Below are positions 39,364 through 49,253 of a DNA stretch of 64,000 bases, piece after piece. The stretch's first letter is position 1; each line of letters begins with the position of its first letter. A program made the position numbers and the translations under genes. The DNA is taken from IMG/VR virus record IMGVR_UViG_3300025706_000001, positions 64,868 to 128,867 of that record; one strand, 5' to 3'. The DNA comes from a virus. Its lineage: Duplodnaviria; Caudoviricetes. The notes under the pieces are model-generated. The model ran no database searches and had not been told where the DNA came from. It worked only from the letters and a program-made list of their open reading frames with translations.

Positions 39364-40002
39364 ATGTGTGACGCAATGGAAGCCTTCATGGCGGAAGGCA
39401 AGGGTGTTGGTTTGTTGACGGACGAGGAAACGCGAGAGTTGGCTCGTCGGGTACGGGCAGGTGATGCCGACGCGGTGAACGAGCTGGTCGAGCGCAATCG
39501 GCCGCTTGTGAAGAATCTAGCGAGGCGGGTTCTGGGTCCACGGTACAATGCCGACGACTTCCTGGACGACGTGCAGGATGGCATGGTGGCCCTGTGGCGG
39601 GCCGTGGAACGGTACGACCCGGACCACGAGGCCGGGGCGAAGTTCGGCAGCTACGCCACGCTGGTGATCGTCCGCAGACTTCTGGCAAAGAACCGTCGCA
39701 GGGTGGCTCGCAGGAAGGTGGTGGTCACAATGACGTTCTGCCGAGGCATTGATGATGACGGTGGAGAGCGTGATGCTCCGCTCGCGGAAGAGCCGGTGTG
39801 TGAAACCGAGGACCAGATTTTGGTCGATGTTTCAGACGCCGTGAACGACTTGCCTGATGACGAGCGCCGTCTTGTCCGTCAGCACTACTACGAAGGCCGA
39901 AACCTGGAAGACATCGGCCGCGAGATTGGCGTGTCGCACACGACGGCCTTGAAGCGTATTCGTCGTGGGGTGGCGAAGGTACGGCAGGCGGTGATGGCGT
40001 AG
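39364..40002 (+). CDS. Phage-encoded sigma70-family sigma factor
   Basis: LLT.EE..ELA.R...GD..A...LVE.N..LV...A (r1.2/2.1); D..Q.G..AL..AVERYDP...KF.SYA (r2); L...ER.....Y......LE.IG...GVS (r4). Confidence 0.9.
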   Translation: MCDAMEAFMAEGKGVGLLTDEETRELARRVRAGDADAVNELVERNRPLVKNLARRVLGPRYNADDFLDDVQDGMVALWRAVERYDPDHEAGAKFGSYATLVIVRRLLAKNRRRVARRKVVVTMTFCRGIDDDGGERDAPLAEEPVCETEDQILVDVSDAVNDLPDDERRLVRQHYYEGRNLEDIGREIGVSHTTALKRIRRGVAKVRQAVMA

Positions 40003-41321
40003 GGGCGTGGCAATAAGGAGGGAAACATGAAAACGCTAGAGCAACTGAAAATTTGTGAGCGGTGCGGGTGTGAGAAGTCTCCCCCGCGTGACCGCATGAC
40101 TGGCTTGTGCTGCAAGTGCGACGCGGAATCGACATGCCGGCATTATCAGGACAGACCGCATGGCCTGCTGCCGAAAGACTGGACGTGCCCAGCCGGCGTG
40201 CAGCCGATCAACTTGGCTGGCTATGGTCCTGGCTGTTTGACGCGGATTCCGTGCCGATGGATTCCACCGGCAATAGTAGACGGAACGTAGGCGACGTGCG
40301 ACAAGTTCGAGCCGTCCGACATTGAGGGCGAGTTTGCGTGGGACCGCGCCATCGAAGAAAGCGATCGCAGGATGCAACTGGCCATTTCGGTTATTGCAAA
40401 GGTGAAGAAAGAGCACAAGGGACGAGATTGGCGTGGTGAAGTGCCGTGCCCGACCGGATGTGGTGGGACGTTGCATCTTTCGCACGCCGGTCTGAATGGG
40501 CATGTATGGGGGCAGTGTTCAACCGATGAGTGCCTTAGCTGGATGGAGTGAAGGCGCGGCGGCAATAAGGGACGTGGAGCAAAAGTCCAGACTGGCCCAA
40601 TGGAGAGATAGTTATGAAACCAGGAGTACCTGAAGCGATTGAGGCAATGTTTGCTTTGTGCCAGGCAATTGGCGATGACGTGACGGTCAATGATTTGGCT
40701 GAGGGATGCAAACTGGCGATTGCTGACGGTCATGACATGGCGCAAATCCAGCTTTTCATGATGTCGGAAGCGATCAGAATCAGCAAGCCAAAGGATGTGT
40801 TAGTGAAAGAGGAGGCAGAGATATGAAGTGTTTTTGCTGTGGTGAGGAATGCAACGAAACGGGGATGGCCAGGATCGACTTCCTGGGCGAGCCTAAGTTT
40901 GTCTGTGAGAAGTGCGAGGAAATCGCTCGTTGCGGACGGAGGCTGATGCCGCAGGTGGAGTGCTCTCGCCCGTGGGTATTGGCAATAGAGAGGAAGCGCG
41001 GGCCGGTTGGCAGCCTCTATGGGTCGAAGTAGCTGGAGAACTGGCAATGCAATTGGCAATTAAGCTGATGGATTGGGACGCAAGAAAGAAGTCTGGCGAT
41101 TGCGAAAGGTTTCATTGGCTGGCGTTCGAGTGGCAGCATTTGAAACCACGCCCAGGCCCTGACTCAGTGAGATCACACGAGTACACGCTGTGGATCTTGG
41201 TTGGTTGGGGAGGGGTAATGATCGAGTTGATTTGTGCGCCGTAAGTCTTGTTGCTGTTGGGTGGCAATAAGTGGTTGTTGGTTGGTTGACCGTATCTGTT
41301 TTCAGGAAAGGTGGTAGTGTC

Positions 41322-42248
41322 ATGGCGAGTCAGTATGCAGAAGCGTTGCGGGCGAAGTTCTCGGCGGTTCGTTTGCGGACGAAGTGGTGGGGCGTGACCC
41401 GCAAGGTCGATGACGTGACGAGGGACAAGATGGCTGAGGCGGTTGGCGCGTGCGCCGAAGAGGTACACGTCAAGAAGTATCTCGTGAACACAAAGCATCC
41501 CAAGTACAAGGGATGCACAAAGGTTCGGTCGAACGTCAAGGCGTTCTTCCGCAATACCACGAACCCGTGGCCGGAAGACGGCGTGCGGTTGTGTTTACGC
41601 GAAGACGTCCAGAAGATCACGGATCAGGTCGCCCGCGCGCAGTCGGCTTTGGATCAGGCCGTGGCGGGGCTGAACGAGGTCTACGCCGAGATCCGCGAGG
41701 AGCGTCGGCAGTCGCTGGGCACGATGTTCCGGGAAGACGACTACCCGGAAACCCTCGAAGGACTGTTCGAGGTGTGGCTGGAGTTCGTGAATATCGAGCC
41801 ACCGGAATACCTCCAGGGAGAGAATCCTCGCGCCTTCGAGATGGCCGAACGGCAGGCCCTGGCCCGGCTGGAAGAGGCTGTGGGCTTGATCGAGACCTCG
41901 ATGGCCGAAGAGTTCAAGGTCTTCCTGGACTCGATGGTGGATCGTTTGGGTCTGGACGACCAGGGCAAGCCGAAGCGGTTCCAGGTCCAGAAGGACGGTC
42001 GCTGCCCGGTGATCGACAACTTGAAGGACTTCTTCGCGAAGTTCAAGTCGATGAGCCTGGGCAGCAACGAAGCTCTGGACGAGTTGGTCAAACAGGCCGA
42101 GCAGGTCATTCAGGGGGTAAATCCGGAGGGCCTTCGCGAGTCTATGGGCGCGCGAGAAGCGGTGCGGGAAGGCATGAAGGCCATCGGCGCACAGTTGGAC
42201 AAGATGGTCGAACTGAAGCCTTCGCGGGTGGTGACGTTCGACGATTGA
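41322..42248 (+). CDS. DUF3150-like protein
   Basis: WWG..RK, K.L, T.PW.EDGVRL, LG.MF...DYP, N...L..LV..A. Confidence 0.6.
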   Translation: MASQYAEALRAKFSAVRLRTKWWGVTRKVDDVTRDKMAEAVGACAEEVHVKKYLVNTKHPKYKGCTKVRSNVKAFFRNTTNPWPEDGVRLCLREDVQKITDQVARAQSALDQAVAGLNEVYAEIREERRQSLGTMFREDDYPETLEGLFEVWLEFVNIEPPEYLQGENPRAFEMAERQALARLEEAVGLIETSMAEEFKVFLDSMVDRLGLDDQGKPKRFQVQKDGRCPVIDNLKDFFAKFKSMSLGSNEALDELVKQAEQVIQGVNPEGLRESMGAREAVREGMKAIGAQLDKMVELKPSRVVTFDD

Positions 42249-42302
42249 GGGTTGTTTTGATTACTTGCTTACCAGGGGTGTTTTAACAGAGAGGTTGTTT
42301 TT

Positions 42303-43253
42303 ATGTCACAGATTGCGCACAAAATAACGAGAGACCAGATCGACGCCAATGGAAAGTACATTGGGTCGATTGACGTGTCCAACTTCGATGGCGATTTGGA
42401 GATCAGCGACGGACTTGGCTGTGTGTTTTTTTTGAGACTGTCCGTAACTGGCTGGATTGTTGTCAAAGCCGGGTCGGGCATCAAAGCCGGGGGGGGCATC
42501 AAAGCCGGGTCGGGCATCAAAGCCGGGGAGGGCATCGAAGCCGGGGAGGGCATCGAAGCCGGGTGGGGCATCGAAGCCGGGTGGGGCATCAAAGCCGGGG
42601 AGGGCATCAAAGCCGGGTCGGGCATCAAAGCCGGGGAGGGCATCGAAGCCGGGGAGGGCATCAAAGCCGGGTCGGGCATCAAAGCCGGGGAGGGCATCAA
42701 AGCCGGGTCGGGCATCAAAGCCGGGTGGGGCATCAAAGCCGGGTCGGGCATCAAAGCCGGGTTGGGCATCGAAGCCGGGTCGGGCATCAAAGCCGGGGAG
42801 GGCATCAAAGCCGGGTGGGGCATCAAAGCCGGGTCGGGCATCAAAGCCGGGTTGGGCATCGAAGCCGGGTCGGGCATCGAAGCCGGGTGGGGCATCAAAG
42901 CCGGGGAGGGCATCAAAGCCGGGTGGGGCATCAAAGCCGGGTCGGGCATCGAAGCCGGGGAGGGCATCGAAGCCGGGTGGGGCATCAAAGCCGGGCTTTC
43001 GATTACCTGCAAACGGCGACTATCGGTCGCATTGAGAGTCTTTGCTGGACTCTGTTTGTGGAAACTACCAAGTAGGGAAGAGATGGAGATTCGGTGTGGC
43101 AAGCTCGAAAGCGGGACGATCTCATTTGGGACTCTAGTGGAGGCGGGACTGCCGGAAGATGTGGATGCCGGCGTGAGTCAGAGCATTGAAGTTATTCCCC
43201 ATGAGGATCTCAATCAGTTGATGTGGTCAAGTGTCGTGACGCTCGAAGGCTGA
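42303..43253 (+). CDS. Hexapeptide-repeat (GI[K/E]AGx) beta-solenoid-like protein
   Basis: ~30 repeats between unique N- and C-terminal segments; GAGG RBS. Confidence 0.8.
   Translation: MSQIAHKITRDQIDANGKYIGSIDVSNFDGDLEISDGLGCVFFLRLSVTGWIVVKAGSGIKAGGGIKAGSGIKAGEGIEAGEGIEAGWGIEAGWGIKAGEGIKAGSGIKAGEGIEAGEGIKAGSGIKAGEGIKAGSGIKAGWGIKAGSGIKAGLGIEAGSGIKAGEGIKAGWGIKAGSGIKAGLGIEAGSGIEAGWGIKAGEGIKAGWGIKAGSGIEAGEGIEAGWGIKAGLSITCKRRLSVALRVFAGLCLWKLPSREEMEIRCGKLESGTISFGTLVEAGLPEDVDAGVSQSIEVIPHEDLNQLMWSSVVTLEG
42465..42995 (+). repeat. 18-bp tandem repeat, ~29.5 copies
   Basis: GGCATC(A/G)AAGCCGGG-NNG. Confidence 0.97.
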
Positions 43254-43358
43254 GAGCACCCTTTCCTTGGGGCGGCGGGCTCGTTGCTCGTCGCCCCGTT
43301 TCTGTTGGCAATAAGGGTATGTGGTGGATTGGTTACCCATTCAAGAAAGGGAGAAGCG

Positions 43359-43598
43359 ATGACAAAGTTCAGACTTGACATTCCGGCGTCACTGATGATG
43401 ACGTTCGAGGGCGAGACGGAAGAGGAAGCGATTGCCGCTGCCAAGGACTGGTGCGGCATCCATGAAGGCATTGACCTTGATGACTTTCGTGACATCGAAG
43501 CCCGGCTGTATCCGATACCCTGCGGCACTGAAGCCGAACAGATCGAAGTGGCCGACGCTTGGGATGAAGAGGATTCTGTCGTGGACGGCGGGCAATAA
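43359..43598 (+). CDS. Very acidic small protein
   Basis: Motif plus RBS; its stop TAA lies inside the next GGCAATAAG. Confidence 0.65.
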   Translation: MTKFRLDIPASLMMTFEGETEEEAIAAAKDWCGIHEGIDLDDFRDIEARLYPIPCGTEAEQIEVADAWDEEDSVVDGGQ

Positions 43599-43642
43599 GC
43601 AGGTGTGTCGAGCCTGTTGTTTGCTTCATGAAAGGTGCAGTG

Positions 43643-43909
43643 ATGGATAATGAACATTTGATCGAGCAGATGCGGTCGTACATTGGGCTGGCTTACAGCA
43701 TGTTCTGTGACGGCTACAGGGTGAACTCAGACGATGCGGTGAAGTCGATCGCGTCGAGGACTGGGATGTGCCGCAGCACGGTGCGCAAGCTGGTCGATGG
43801 CGACACGGCGTGTCCGAGGTACTTGACAGTGAAGAAGTTTGGTGACGCCTGTGGCCTGCATTTGGTATGGACGAAGGGTGGCCAGCCTCGTCTGAAGTTG
43901 GCGTCGTAG
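43643..43909 (+). CDS. Cro/XRE-like HTH protein
   Basis: IASRTGMCRSTVRKL..GDT..PR..TV.K...ACG. Confidence 0.65.
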   Translation: MDNEHLIEQMRSYIGLAYSMFCDGYRVNSDDAVKSIASRTGMCRSTVRKLVDGDTACPRYLTVKKFGDACGLHLVWTKGGQPRLKLAS

Positions 43910-43962
43910 TGGCAATAAGCCACTGTGGTGAATCAGTTCTACTTTTAGGAAAGGGACGAACA

Positions 43963-44286
43963 ATGCACACTCCAACTCCGTGGGCTGCAAAACAGGATTT
44001 GGCGACCGGACGGTGGTACATCGAGATAAGGGAAGATGGGTACAAAGCCCCGATCGTGTTCCCTGGAATCTGTGGGAACCCTGAGCACATCGGTGGACCG
44101 CGATTTCAGGGCGACGCGGGTGACAATGCCAAGTTCATCGCTTTGGCGTGCAATTGCCATGACGACTTGCTCGCCGCCTGCAAGTATGCAGCCGAGTTTT
44201 GTACATGCGCAAGGTCTGCTGAAGAGATGCAGACAATCGGAAAACGACTCAATGCCGCCATCAGTGAAGCAGAAGGGAGAAGCTAG
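43963..44286 (+). CDS. Hypothetical phage protein
   Basis: HTPTPW...NAKFI..A.N..DDLLAAC pattern. Confidence 0.65.
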   Translation: MHTPTPWAAKQDLATGRWYIEIREDGYKAPIVFPGICGNPEHIGGPRFQGDAGDNAKFIALACNCHDDLLAACKYAAEFCTCARSAEEMQTIGKRLNAAISEAEGRS

Positions 44287-45195: not shown

Positions 45196-45402
45196 ATGAG
45201 CATGGACATCATCAACTGGGAAATACTGGCAGACGGGACGATCAGTCTCAAGACGCCGGGGATCTCGAAGGAAAATCATGTCTCGGCCGACGAGCTACTT
45301 GAGCAGTTGGCTGAGAACATGGGTGGCGCGGTTACGATCGAGAAACTCAAGAAAGGGTACGTGCCGGTGGGCCACCATCATCACGACCATGTGCATCACT
45401 AG
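45196..45402 (+). CDS. DUF2997-like small protein with a His-rich tail
   Basis: I..EI..DGTI...T.G...LE.L....GG; ends HHHHDHVHH. Confidence 0.5.
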   Translation: MSMDIINWEILADGTISLKTPGISKENHVSADELLEQLAENMGGAVTIEKLKKGYVPVGHHHHDHVHH

Positions 45403-45433
45403 GTTTGTGTTTTTTCACGAAAGGGCTCAGAAG

Positions 45434-46012
45434 ATGAGTACGGCGACGTTGGAAATTGGGACTGAACGTGTTGGTACGCGGGTGTACGTGACTGGAAACA
45501 CGTATGCCGTGAAAGATCGTCTCAAAGCAGCTGGCTGCCACTGGGACGGCGAGCGACGGCAGTGGTGGATCGGCGCGGCCAAGCAGGCGGCCATTGCGGC
45601 GATCGTGGGTGGGTTGGCCGGACAACCTGCGCCGAAGGAAGACTTGTCAACGCGGCGAGTGTACGGCAAGGTCAAGTACAAGGGTCGTCTGTATTACGTC
45701 ATCGGACAGAGTGGCAGTGGTCGATTGCGGCTGACCGTCTTGGATGGCAAGATCGACTTCTGGGCCGATGAGTCGGCCTGTCAGTGGGAGAAGCGGTACA
45801 CGCCGCGTGAGTATCGGGGGCGGACGGAATACCAGACCCTCGGCGGCATTCAGCGGTTCGTCGAATCGCGAAAGCAGCACGATCCCGACGGCATTGGCCA
45901 AAACTTGGAGCCGGGCTATTACATGCAGAATGGGGAGGTCCTGGCGAGCGGCTGTGCCGAGTGTCGGCGGCTTGGCACGATGTGCCGGTCCTGTCAGCAT
46001 GACTACGAATAG
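45434..46012 (+). CDS. Hypothetical protein (DUF5710-like N-terminus)
   Basis: GNTY.VKD.LKAAG..WD.ER.QWW. Confidence 0.6.
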   Translation: MSTATLEIGTERVGTRVYVTGNTYAVKDRLKAAGCHWDGERRQWWIGAAKQAAIAAIVGGLAGQPAPKEDLSTRRVYGKVKYKGRLYYVIGQSGSGRLRLTVLDGKIDFWADESACQWEKRYTPREYRGRTEYQTLGGIQRFVESRKQHDPDGIGQNLEPGYYMQNGEVLASGCAECRRLGTMCRSCQHDYE

Positions 46013-46018
46013 ACGAAC

Positions 46019-46052
46019 GGGGCGGTCGGGCTGCGGCTCGATCGCCCCTTTT
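46019..46052 (+). terminator. Intrinsic terminator, representative of about 15 in 43-59 kb
   Basis: GGGGCGGTCGGGC-TGCG-GCTCGATCGCCCC-TTTT directly before the motif at 46057. Others at about 43269, 46638, 50318, 50660, 51387, 52285, 52924, 54001, 54855, 55426, 56025, 56529, 57557, 58366, 58866. Confidence 0.8.
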
Positions 46053-46150
46053 GCGTGGCAATAAGACCTTGTGTTGGTTTGTTTCGCGGCCACGGCGAAC
46101 GAGATTACTGTCCCGTAGTGGCACAGGACAGTACGAAAGAAAGGTGACAG

Positions 46151-46624
46151 ATGACAGTCGAGACGATGGCCCAAGAGGCCCCAGTGACCCAAGAGGTCGT
46201 GACATTGAGTGAGCGTGTCCAGTCCGCGTGCGATATCGCAGCAGGCCGGACTCTGGCAGATCCCGCATCGAGCGGGAAGCGAATCGTCGGTGCGAAGAAG
46301 GATTTGAACTGCAAGGGTCGTGGCCCGCAGTGGTATCGCATGGTCTACCGTGGCGGCTGGAAGTACGTCAGCAACGAGCGGTTGCCGAATGGGGCTTTCC
46401 GCGCTTCCGAGCGTCGGGCCGAGGTCCACGGAAACGTCTATCCCGGCGAGATCGTCGTGAGCCACGACCGAGGCAAGCCGGTTGATGCAGCTTGGCTGGT
46501 CTTGACGCCGGATGCTGAAGGCAAGGTGCTTCGGTCCATCGAGTTCGCAAGTCGTCGCGATGGGAAGCTGGCATTTCATCTGCCGGATGGATCTGAGGTC
46601 GTTCTGCCGAATCCTCGTGAGTAG
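46151..46624 (+). CDS. Hypothetical protein
   Basis: GAAAGGTG RBS. Confidence 0.6.
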   Translation: MTVETMAQEAPVTQEVVTLSERVQSACDIAAGRTLADPASSGKRIVGAKKDLNCKGRGPQWYRMVYRGGWKYVSNERLPNGAFRASERRAEVHGNVYPGEIVVSHDRGKPVDAAWLVLTPDAEGKVLRSIEFASRRDGKLAFHLPDGSEVVLPNPRE

Positions 46625-46726
46625 GTGGCGTTGGTTTGGGGCGGCGGGTTTTAGCCTGCCGCCCCTTTTGCATTGGCAATAAGGGGTCAGTAGATGTTAC
46701 TGATCTCTCTTGTGAAAGGGGAATGT

Positions 46727-47097: not shown

Positions 47098-48609
47098 ATG
47101 ACAGTATTGATTGAAAGGTTAAAGGCTGCCCGTCGCGTATCCGCGCCCTTGATCGCCATCGAAACTGCCGATGCGGCAGCGACGATCCGAACGGTGGTCG
47201 AGGGTCTGAACGGCGGCACGGCAGCGGTGATGTGGGACGTGGCCAATGGGATGCTGGCCATCAATGATCAGGGCCAGGACGCCATGCAGCGCGTTGATAC
47301 GGCGCAGACCGAAATGAGCGAGTTCGGTTGTGTGCGTCAGGCCGAGGCCCTGGAAGCGGGCTGCATCTTGTTTGCTCATTGGGATCGGAAGTTCTGGGAG
47401 TCGCCCACGACGGTGCAACAGGTGTGGAACCTGCGTGACAAGTTCAAGGCTGATCAGCGGACGTTGGTGCTGCTTGACCGCGCCTTCACGATTCCCGACA
47501 AGCTGCAAGGCGAGATTGTGGTCCTGGAAGATCCGCTTCCTGGCGCAGAGCAGATCAGCGGCATCGTAGATCGGGTGGTGGAGACGCACAACAAGAATGC
47601 GGCCGAAGCCCGTGGATCGAGCAAGAAGAAGATCCCCGACGCCGACCTGGATGAACGGACGCGGCAGGAGTGCATCGACATGGCTCGGGGAATGCACGAC
47701 GGGCAGGCGGAACTACTGTTGCAGATGTGTCTGGGAAAGGACGGGAAGATGGATCTGACGGCGCTGGCTGAACGGCAGCGGAAGATCATTGAACAGGTTC
47801 AGGGCCTGACGGTGTTCCGCAACGCCGGGTCGTTCGCAGACATCGGCGGACTCGACGCGCTGAAAGAGTACATCAGCCTGATCATGAAGGGGCGAAATGC
47901 CCCGAAGCTGATCGTGTGGCTTGACGAGATCGGCACGACGGGGCTGGGCAACCGCTCGGACCTGTCGGGGGTCAATCAGTCCACGGAAGGGCATCTGTTG
48001 CAGTTCTTGCAGGACAACGAAGTGTATGGTATACTTTTGGCGGGGATACCAGGCACCGGAAAGTCGGCCTTCTGTAAGGCGGTTGGCGGGGAGTTTGATA
48101 GGGTGGTTTTACGGCTGGACCTGGATTCCTGTAAAGGAAGTTTAGTGGGGGAGTCGGAAGCCAAGCTCAGGGCCGCCACAAACGTCATCAAAGCGTGTGC
48201 GGACGAAGCTGGGTCGATGCTTTGGATCGCGACTGCAAACAGCACGGACGGACTCAGTGGAGCCCTTTTGAATCGGTTCAGCGACACGTATTTTCTGGAT
48301 ACCCCAACGCGACAAGAGCGTGGGCCAATCTGGGACGTATGGCTGCGGAAACGCGGTCTCGATGACAAGCCGTACCAGGACGACGACGGCTGGAACGGCC
48401 GAAATGTGTTTCAATGCGTCGATAAATCGTGGAGAACCGGACTCTCGATCGCTGAAGCGGCTAAGTGGATCACGCCCGTTGGTGTCACTGACGCCGAAGA
48501 GATCGAGAGGCTGCGGAAACGCGCTGACGGCCGCTACTTGTCGGCTACGCAACCTGGGCTGTATCGACGGCCGAAGCAGCAGGCAACTGGTCGTCGGGTT
48601 GAGGTGTAG
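47098..48609 (+). CDS. Ycf46-like AAA+ ATPase with permuted motif order
   Basis: N-terminal PLI.IET.D, WD...G; F.DIGGL..LK; IVWLDEI; GILL.GIPGTGKS; LVGESE; IATAN; RF...YFLD.P...ER..IW. Confidence 0.85.
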   Translation: MTVLIERLKAARRVSAPLIAIETADAAATIRTVVEGLNGGTAAVMWDVANGMLAINDQGQDAMQRVDTAQTEMSEFGCVRQAEALEAGCILFAHWDRKFWESPTTVQQVWNLRDKFKADQRTLVLLDRAFTIPDKLQGEIVVLEDPLPGAEQISGIVDRVVETHNKNAAEARGSSKKKIPDADLDERTRQECIDMARGMHDGQAELLLQMCLGKDGKMDLTALAERQRKIIEQVQGLTVFRNAGSFADIGGLDALKEYISLIMKGRNAPKLIVWLDEIGTTGLGNRSDLSGVNQSTEGHLLQFLQDNEVYGILLAGIPGTGKSAFCKAVGGEFDRVVLRLDLDSCKGSLVGESEAKLRAATNVIKACADEAGSMLWIATANSTDGLSGALLNRFSDTYFLDTPTRQERGPIWDVWLRKRGLDDKPYQDDDGWNGRNVFQCVDKSWRTGLSIAEAAKWITPVGVTDAEEIERLRKRADGRYLSATQPGLYRRPKQQATGRRVEV

Positions 48610-49150
48610 GACGAAAGCGATCTTGCAAGAGGTTGCTTACGTGGCTTGAACTGACACCGAACATGGCGGCGATGTCCTTTGGGGCAACGCCGTCACGTCG
48701 GTGTAGTCTGCGGATTTCGCGAATGTCGTTGTCTTTTAGTTTGCAGCGAGGATTGCGCTCGCCGTCGTTTCGAGGCGGTGTCCAGTTGGTTCTGGTTTTG
48801 ACCCAGTGTTGGGCATTTTCTTTCGGGGTGGCGTATTCGAGGTTGTCGATGTGGTTGTTTGTCTTGTCTAGGTCTTTGTGGTTTACGTGGATCTTTGGCT
48901 TCCTGGGGCCAATCCATGCCTCGGCTACGAGGATGTGTACACGAACCCCGTACCGACTGGTCGGGTTGGCACACAGGACGACTCTTGGGTATCCAAGGCT
49001 GTCTACTGCCGCCCGAAGTATGCGGCCCTTGCGAGAGCCGTGTCCCCAGACTTCTCGTCGGACTCTTCCGAAGTTAGATACGGAATACAGTGATTCGTAC
49101 CCTACGACTGGACGCCACTCTTCCGTTGTGATAGGCTCATTTTCAGCCAT
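48545..49150 (-). CDS. NUMOD4-HNH homing endonuclease with a C-terminal HTH, antisense to its neighbours
   Basis: EEWRPVVGYESLYSVSNFGRVR; VH.LVA.A.IGP; VNHKD.DK.NN...NLEY.T..EN..H. Confidence 0.9.
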   Translation of the reverse strand: MAENEPITTEEWRPVVGYESLYSVSNFGRVRREVWGHGSRKGRILRAAVDSLGYPRVVLCANPTSRYGVRVHILVAEAWIGPRKPKIHVNHKDLDKTNNHIDNLEYATPKENAQHWVKTRTNWTPPRNDGERNPRCKLKDNDIREIRRLHRRDGVAPKDIAAMFGVSSSHVSNLLQDRFRPTPQPDDQLPAASAVDTAQVA

Positions 49151-49224
49151 GACATGTCCTTCCGCTAAAGGATGGTTGTGGTTAGAGCCGAACATGGCGT
49201 GTCATCGCCTGCTCGGCTCGTGTC

Positions 49225-49253
49225 ATTGTAACGCCTTTGAATCTGGCGATCAA
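49225..49253 (-). promoter_or_regulatory. sigma70-type promoter of the NUMOD4-HNH gene
   Basis: TTGATC-17 bp-TACAAT. Confidence 0.6.

Follow-up and report, generated by a model that had tools for sequence, protein, structure and literature searches.

A two-domain phage AAA protein with its Walker B block placed ahead of Walker A

Motif order at the locus and across the family

The stretch of DNA analysed here (the window) comprises 64,000 nucleotides from a virus of the Caudoviricetes and forms part of virus record IMGVR_UViG_3300025706_000001, which is 128,867 bp long, carries direct terminal repeats and is rated complete. At 47098-48609 on the + strand, amid small phage genes that also lie on the + strand, a stop-free open reading frame (ORF) encodes a protein of 503 aa (P0001), a predicted two-domain AAA protein in which the segment carrying Walker B comes before the segment carrying Walker A. 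The gene occurs as a single copy in the whole record and its ATG start is preceded by AGGAAAGGG.

Several segments can be delineated along the gene, all of them on the + strand. Residues 1-237 (47098..47808) form a degenerate AAA+-like alpha/beta domain with a helical lid and without Walker motifs, as judged by AlphaFold2 (AF2) modelling, VIA-align and hidden Markov model (HMM) matches. This domain is followed by a pre-core helix, alpha0 (residues 245-263, 47830..47886; SFADIGGLDALKEYISLIM), modelled by AF2 as a helix at 253-263. It bears the motif FADIGGL..LK at residues 246-256, the G251 of which is kept in 253 of 255 family members. In P0001, alpha0 runs into the Walker B strand and not into beta1. 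The next segment, block B (residues 266-309, 47893..48024; assigned by hhalign, AF2 and coevolution), comprises strand beta3 (LIVWL), Walker B with D276-E277 at 47923-47928, a pore-loop-2-like D.SGV and helix alpha3, and sits N-terminal of Walker A. Block A (residues 310-373, 48025..48216; Pfam AAA and hhalign) comprises beta1, Walker A, alpha1, beta2, pore loop 1 and alpha2, with LVGESE at residues 349-354 (48142-48159). Block C starts with residues 374-401 (48217..48300; hhalign and AF2), which contain beta4 (MLWIATA), the sensor-1 residues T379 and N381, alpha4, R393 and beta5. Within this segment ATAN occupies residues 378-381 (48229-48240), and R393 (48274-48276, in NRF, followed by F394) is a putative arginine finger. 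A helical lid subdomain and C-terminal tail complete the protein (residues 402-492, 48301..48573; AF2 helices and the family alignment) and include the stretch GWNGRNV, for which the family consensus is GWTGAEI.

A sequence-only reading of this DNA had placed IVWLDEI at 47911-47931 and GIPGTGKS at 48043-48066, and a script check of coordinates found both positions exact (residues 272-278 and 316-323). The motif order that it gave, FADIGGL, IVWLDEI, GIPGTGKS, LVGESE, IATAN and RF, was correct to the base. The P-loop of P0001 has the Walker A form GxxGxGK[ST] (GIPGTGKS, residues 316-323), an hhhhDE Walker B motif ends a core strand (LIVWLDE, residues 271-277), and both a sensor-1 polar residue and the arginine of the second region of homology are present (ATAN and R393). 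What P0001 lacks is a collinear match of Walker A, pore loop 1, Walker B and sensor 1 to the Pfam AAA profile (PF00004), which covers it only with profile positions 1-54 of 131, at residues 312-365. In a control, normal-order relatives matched the same profile at positions 1-129 and 2-130 of 131. No hhhhDE motif was found downstream of Walker A in P0001, which removes a canonically placed Walker B as an objection to the earlier reading. The sole later D-E pair, in ACADEAGS (residues 366-373), is located where a predicted helix ends, in a region of the alignment that is variable and gapped. To our knowledge, AAA+ proteins and the other ASCE P-loop ATPases are regarded as having an invariable order, with Walker A first and Walker B later, and annotation models take it for granted.

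A chimeric contig, a local misassembly or an annotation artefact that shuffled the gene could in principle produce such an order. This explanation is almost certainly wrong, because the order recurs in proteins from independent assemblies and from an isolate. The search for homologues with the same order, proposed by the earlier reading, yielded 255 distinct full-length relatives, down to ~30% identity, all of them with Walker B first. They come from independent metagenomes, on contigs of separate JGI, ENA and Logan samples, and from one isolate, Tunturiibacter phage Tunturi_3 (gp103). The ORF in the window is itself uninterrupted, and a protein 92% identical to P0001 is present on contigs from two different samples. 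A protein search covering 5.8 billion proteins returned 202 relatives of P0001, and the 120 of these that were listed had 97-100% query coverage, identity down to ~32% and an hhhhDE motif ~45 residues upstream of the P-loop. A profile search covering 1.84 billion cluster representatives gave 3,718 matches at E<=1e-30. The best 150 of these representatives (50%-identity clusters) all scored at least 582 bits with the swapped profile, nearly all in one collinear stretch, and the few rows with two stretches were intein-bearing forms. Motif classification assigned the swapped order to 126 of 144 new representatives and the canonical order to none; the remainder contained inteins or motif variants. 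Most members of the swapped family carry no functional name. One candidate, a protein of 291 aa that suggested a possible split gene (P0009), was dropped. Its locus (L009:4001-5512) spans the full gene with many frame breaks and stops, for which the probable cause is either an error-rich assembly of long reads or decay of this copy.

The blocks that changed places

Relatives with the normal motif order include Mycobacterium phage Corndog gp96 and Aeromonas phage HJ05 gp65, which share ~24% identity with P0001. All 119 relatives of HJ05 gp65 that could be classified by motif have the normal order; the order of Corndog gp96 was assigned by eye and that of the other normal-order relatives by motif pattern. 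We built a canonical-family HMM from 60 normal-order relatives and matched it to the swapped family. HMM positions 17-275 matched the N-terminal domain (in P0001, positions 25-274 matched residues 11-260 with an independent E-value (i-E) of 2e-15). Positions 353-392, which represent Walker B and alpha3, matched ~residues 257-308, whereas positions 293-352, from Walker A to alpha2, matched ~residues 300-368. Positions from 391 onward matched the remaining C-terminal part. The matches followed the order N-B-A-C in 241 of the 255 members and the order N-A-B-C in none, a result far outside what chance would give. The match of block B to the canonical HMM was significant by itself (i-E<1e-3) in 87 of 119 sequences.

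Profile-profile alignment with hhalign resolved the same blocks against Corndog gp96. Residues 269-308 of P0001 aligned with residues 372-413 of gp96 (98.8%, E 5.6e-17), residues 310-368 with 314-372 (99.6%, E 4.6e-24) and residues 374-422 with 416-466 (97.8%, E 1e-12). The segment swap proposed from the sequence, beta3-alpha3 moved ahead of beta1-alpha2, was thereby shown through comparison with normal-order relatives. The block ends abut in both P0001 and Corndog gp96, and on these alignments the rearrangement is therefore a clean exchange of two adjacent blocks, A (~64 aa) and B (~44 aa). When the blocks were exchanged in silico, four fragmentary HMM matches became one collinear domain; the best domain score rose from 49.9 to 160.4 bits for P0001, and the median gain over 117 sequences was 121 bits. 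The rearrangement is not a circular permutation: alpha0 and everything from beta4 onward are collinear with the normal-order relatives, and only two internal blocks have been exchanged. Since the junctions are identical in every swapped member, the exchange seems to have happened once, in a normal-order ancestor. A plausible path would have A+B duplicated in tandem and the outer copies lost afterwards. Duplication intermediates with two A or two B blocks were not found among the 255 members.

The N-terminal domain bears on the origin of the upstream Walker B block. Residues 1-237 were modelled by AF2 with a mean predicted local distance difference test (pLDDT) score of 95.0 and a predicted template modelling (pTM) score of 0.86. 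In VIA-align comparisons they were collinear, over 190-209 residues and with Z of 10-12, with whole AAA domains of Pex1/6, Vps4, p97 and FtsHi. The domain also matched phrog_8638 at 3.9e-42, and a homologous domain of ~240 residues stands ahead of the AAA domain in the normal-order Ycf46-like relatives as well. On these models P0001 has two AAA domains, of which the first is dead and the second rewired, and Ycf46-type proteins in general appear to share the layout of two AAA domains with the first one dead. The presence of two AAA-like domains gives some room to a different history, in which the upstream Walker B block would be the relic of a complete upstream AAA domain left by fusion of tandem domains and deletion, and block C does show a faint second match to the N-terminal domain of Corndog gp96 (26.8%). 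Yet the N-terminal domain is complete without block B and is homologous from end to end with that of the normal-order relatives. Moreover, block B is closest to the Walker B block of the relatives' second AAA domain (D2), the junctions abut exactly, and none of the 255 members contains a duplicated A or B block. We therefore regard a relic origin as very improbable.

Predicted fold, coevolution and the active site

Residues 225-503 were modelled with AF2 from 116 aligned sequences and no templates. The core model had a pLDDT of 94.5 and a pTM of 0.90, with pLDDT of 87-96 across block B. Its elements are, in chain order, helix 253-263, strand 271-275, helix 292-306, strand 310-316, helix 322-332, strand 336-340, helix 350-368, strand 374-380, helix 388-393, strand 396-400 and the lid helices, so that the predicted model has the AAA+ fold of an alpha/beta core with a helical lid. 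VIA-align matched the core (model residues 1-266) to p97 D2, Vps4, spastin and Cdc48 with Z of 16-17 and a root mean square deviation (rmsd) of 2.5-3.0 over 200-215 residues. About 50 residues remained unaligned, roughly as many as block B contains, and they may represent this block, a segment that an order-bound aligner would be unable to place. Foldseek hits to the PDB (E 1e-7 to 1e-8, template modelling (TM) score 0.4-0.55, rmsd 9-17) were uninformative on topology. In BFVD no model of the same topology was found, and the best TM score there, 0.66, was to phage proteins named ycf46. A predicted complex of three copies of residues 225-503 with ATP scored 0.01 against a mark of 0.42 and was used neither way.

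Residue contacts were derived, independently of the AF2 model, by mean-field direct coupling analysis (DCA) on the 255 family sequences (effective number of sequences, Neff, 222), with the maximum of three column-shuffled nulls (1.97) as the threshold. Thirty pairs lay above this maximum, 13 of which link block B to block A or C. By the pairs 273-376 and 278-378, the Walker B strand beta3 lies next to the sensor-1 strand beta4; the pair 276-379, in the same register, scored 1.94 and fell just under the null maximum. Pairs 295-354, 303-365 and 307-365 indicate that alpha3 runs parallel to alpha2, and the proximity of the two pore-loop regions follows from pairs 295/296-343 and 293-346. According to the top pair, 271-368, and the pair 270-369, beta3 begins close to where alpha2 ends, which is the point of chain continuity in normal AAA proteins. 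The textbook order of the AAA core sheet is 5-1-4-3-2, and the DCA contacts show the pattern expected of it.

The catalytic residues are preserved throughout the family. E277, G319, K322, N381 and R393 are invariant (255/255), as is S/T at position 323 (255/255); D276 is present in 248 of 255 sequences, with E in the others, and T379 in 247 of 255. This invariance bears out the earlier statement that all catalytic motifs were kept, and the pattern at E277, G319, K322, N381 and R393 is that of purifying selection on the active site, as far as sequence comparison can tell. Some members carry inteins within these motifs. P-loop inteins were found in P0005, P0259, P0293, P0378 and P0276, and in the normal-order P0128. 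One member (P0246) has an intein in sensor 1 and another (P0107) has one at VGES/E. With a slash at the intein boundaries, the layouts are GxPG/C...HN/CGKS or GTGK/C...HN/S in the P-loop, FIAT/C...HN/CN in sensor 1 and VGES/...HN/SEAK. P0005 is 92% identical to P0001 apart from its P-loop intein of 359 aa. Inteins are usually located at functionally constrained or catalytic sites. Because the catalytic residues are invariant and inteins occupy such constrained sites, we consider it likely that P0001 is a working ATPase.

On this evidence, the gene quite probably encodes a functional Ycf46-type AAA ATPase of the classical clade that has a normal three-dimensional core and a rewired chain. The chain would run through alpha0, beta3 (Walker B), alpha3, beta1 (P-loop), alpha1, beta2, pore loop 1 and alpha2, and from there through beta4 (sensor 1), alpha4 (Arg), beta5 and the lid. 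An exchange of the blocks is sterically possible because the beta-alpha units of a parallel sheet start and end at the same edge. By topology reasoning, and not by measurement, no helix would change its face of the sheet with the new crossovers beta3 to beta1, beta1 to beta2 and beta2 to beta4, and for this reason the exchange would be tolerated. By analogy with its relatives, the protein may assemble into a ring that consumes ATP in remodelling or unfolding a target during infection.

Several points weigh against this assignment. Taken alone, block B of P0001 scores weakly against the canonical HMM (score 0.4, i-E 1.4), and its identity in this protein depends, at the sequence level, on the family profile. 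At the position of the family consensus RRRF, P0001 reads NRF, with a single arginine as against the two arginine fingers of classical AAA proteins, and its sensor-2-region motif is GWNGRNV and not GWTGAEI. The strand neighbours follow from DCA and topology reasoning and not from model coordinates. In addition, DCA pairs within a chain and between chains are indistinguishable.

The last of these points would equally suit an arrangement in trans, in which block B inserts into a neighbouring subunit by three-dimensional domain swapping and the ring is obligately interlocked. The rewiring alters linkers, and domain swapping is known from permuted proteins. Against such an arrangement, the AF2 monomer is one compact domain in which block B, like the rest, was modelled with high pLDDT, and the linkers are short enough to fit insertion in cis (alpha0-beta3 ~7, alpha3-beta1 ~3 and alpha2-beta4 ~5 residues). 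Complementation in trans therefore seems quite improbable.

The reduced arginine-finger region and the atypical lid motif, together with an N-terminal domain that is already a dead AAA domain, are what might be seen in a pseudo-enzyme. In that case the upstream hhhhDE would not be a working Walker B, and the protein would bind nucleotide as a nucleotide-gated scaffold or switch without hydrolysis. Dead AAA domains normally lose their Walker B, sensor-1 and Arg residues, whereas here E277, N381 and R393 are kept in every sequence and D276 is replaced only by E. Block B is, furthermore, homologous to a true Walker B/alpha3 block (the E of 5.6e-17 given above), and the flanks of Walker B coevolve above the null maximum with the sensor-1 strand, with the pair 276-379 just below it. 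A pseudo-enzyme is accordingly an unlikely description of this family, and a functional ATPase with a rewired chain remains the preferred one.

It is rather doubtful that the swap is more than a neutral rewiring and alters how the motor works or evolves. In one version, block B, tethered directly through alpha0, may provide a mechanical link between the catalytic glutamate and the inactive N-terminal domain or a binding partner of that domain. In a second, block B may be donated in trans to the neighbour to give an interlocked ring. In a third, the rearrangement may have arisen from the repair of cuts made by homing endonucleases or inteins; the intein sites, G319 in the P-loop and T379 in sensor 1, are found 6-10 residues in from the two downstream junctions, 309/310 and 373/374, and a free-standing HNH gene adjoins the ATPase gene. 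If the repair origin were true, damage by mobile elements would be a source of fold rewiring.

As a natural experiment, a large, conserved and apparently active family with exchanged core blocks suggests that the active site can survive a re-ordering of the beta-alpha units in the ancient P-loop fold. Questions of folding order and allostery in AAA motors could be tested on this family, which also exemplifies non-circular permutation within the core of an enzyme.

Neighbouring genes and comparison with known systems

At the locus of the swapped relative P0036 (L005), genes for AAA, DUF1257, DUF2997 and DUF3150 proteins lie in a row. The window encodes a homologue of the DUF3150-like protein of that locus at 41271-42248 on the + strand (325 aa; tblastn 9e-21; no significant Pfam match). 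DUF1257 and DUF2997 were not found by Pfam or tblastn among the window ORFs at 43-52 kb. The present analysis also flags a widespread phage protein, relatives of which are linked to the equally unexplained DUF1257, DUF2997 and DUF3150 genes.

Another contig (L004) carries an ATPase gene with 82% DNA identity and 92% protein identity to that of the window. Relative to this contig, window positions 48603-49253 are a 651-bp insertion that begins at the ATPase stop codon. A free-standing homing-endonuclease gene of the HNH/NUMOD4 type lies at 48545-49195 on the - strand (216 aa; phrog_59 at 1.8e-39; Pfam HNH_3 and NUMOD4), and its ORF extends 65 nt antisense into the 3' end of the ATPase gene. Further upstream, the ORF at 39364-40002 (+ strand, 212 aa) shows 81.5% DNA identity to an L004 gene with Sigma70_r2 and Sigma70_r4 Pfam matches and probably encodes a phage sigma factor. 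Window stretches 42250-43232, 43352-44252 and 45403-46637 are without a counterpart in L004, and ORFs 42303-43253, 45278-46012 and 46151-46624 are among the stretches that lack one. Judged from these alignments, the region upstream of the ATPase gene has a mosaic make-up of small genes that can be exchanged.

Full-text literature searches, whose coverage was incomplete and leaves absence unproven, turned up no AAA+ protein described as having Walker B in front of Walker A. Parallels for a changed order of segments come from outside AAA+. The circularly permuted GTPases YlqF, YjeQ and YqeH are P-loop NTPases with motifs in the order G4-G5-G1-G2-G3, in which the termini have moved and both fold and activity are kept. 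P0001 resembles them in having its nucleotide-binding motifs in a non-standard chain order. Unlike them, it belongs to AAA+, its termini are fixed, and two internal blocks have been exchanged in a non-circular manner. The capsid protein of Bordetella phage BPP-1 reportedly has a non-circularly permuted HK97 fold (PMC3863775). Here too a conserved fold was kept in a phage protein while the order of its segments changed non-circularly, but the capsid protein is structural and has no catalytic motifs.

Among AAA proteins, P0001 shares GxxGxGK[ST]..hVGESE, the sensor-1 Asn and the Arg after alpha4 with the classical unfoldases and remodellers p97/Cdc48 D2, Vps4, spastin, FtsH and Msp1, the group that gave its best structural matches. 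It differs from them in the chain connectivity of its core, in lacking a protease, MIT or N-D1 substrate domain, and in a pore loop (LVG) without an aromatic residue. The closest known systems are normal-order Ycf46-type phage AAA ATPases such as Corndog gp96, HJ05 gp65 and A0A0U3CC34 of Pseudomonas phage SM1; UniProt phage entries such as the last are named "Uncharacterized AAA domain-containing protein ycf46". They share with P0001 the homologous degenerate N-terminal domain, FxDIGGL and the two-domain layout, as well as Walker A, VGESE, Walker B/GD.SGV, ATxN, RF and the lid motifs. Every block is homologous between the two (E 1e-12 to 5e-24), and P-loop inteins occur in some members of both. 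Unlike the swapped family, the Ycf46-type phage ATPases run from Walker A through VGESE and Walker B to ATAN. P0001 descends from the Ycf46-type branch of classical AAA ATPases and most likely works like its members.

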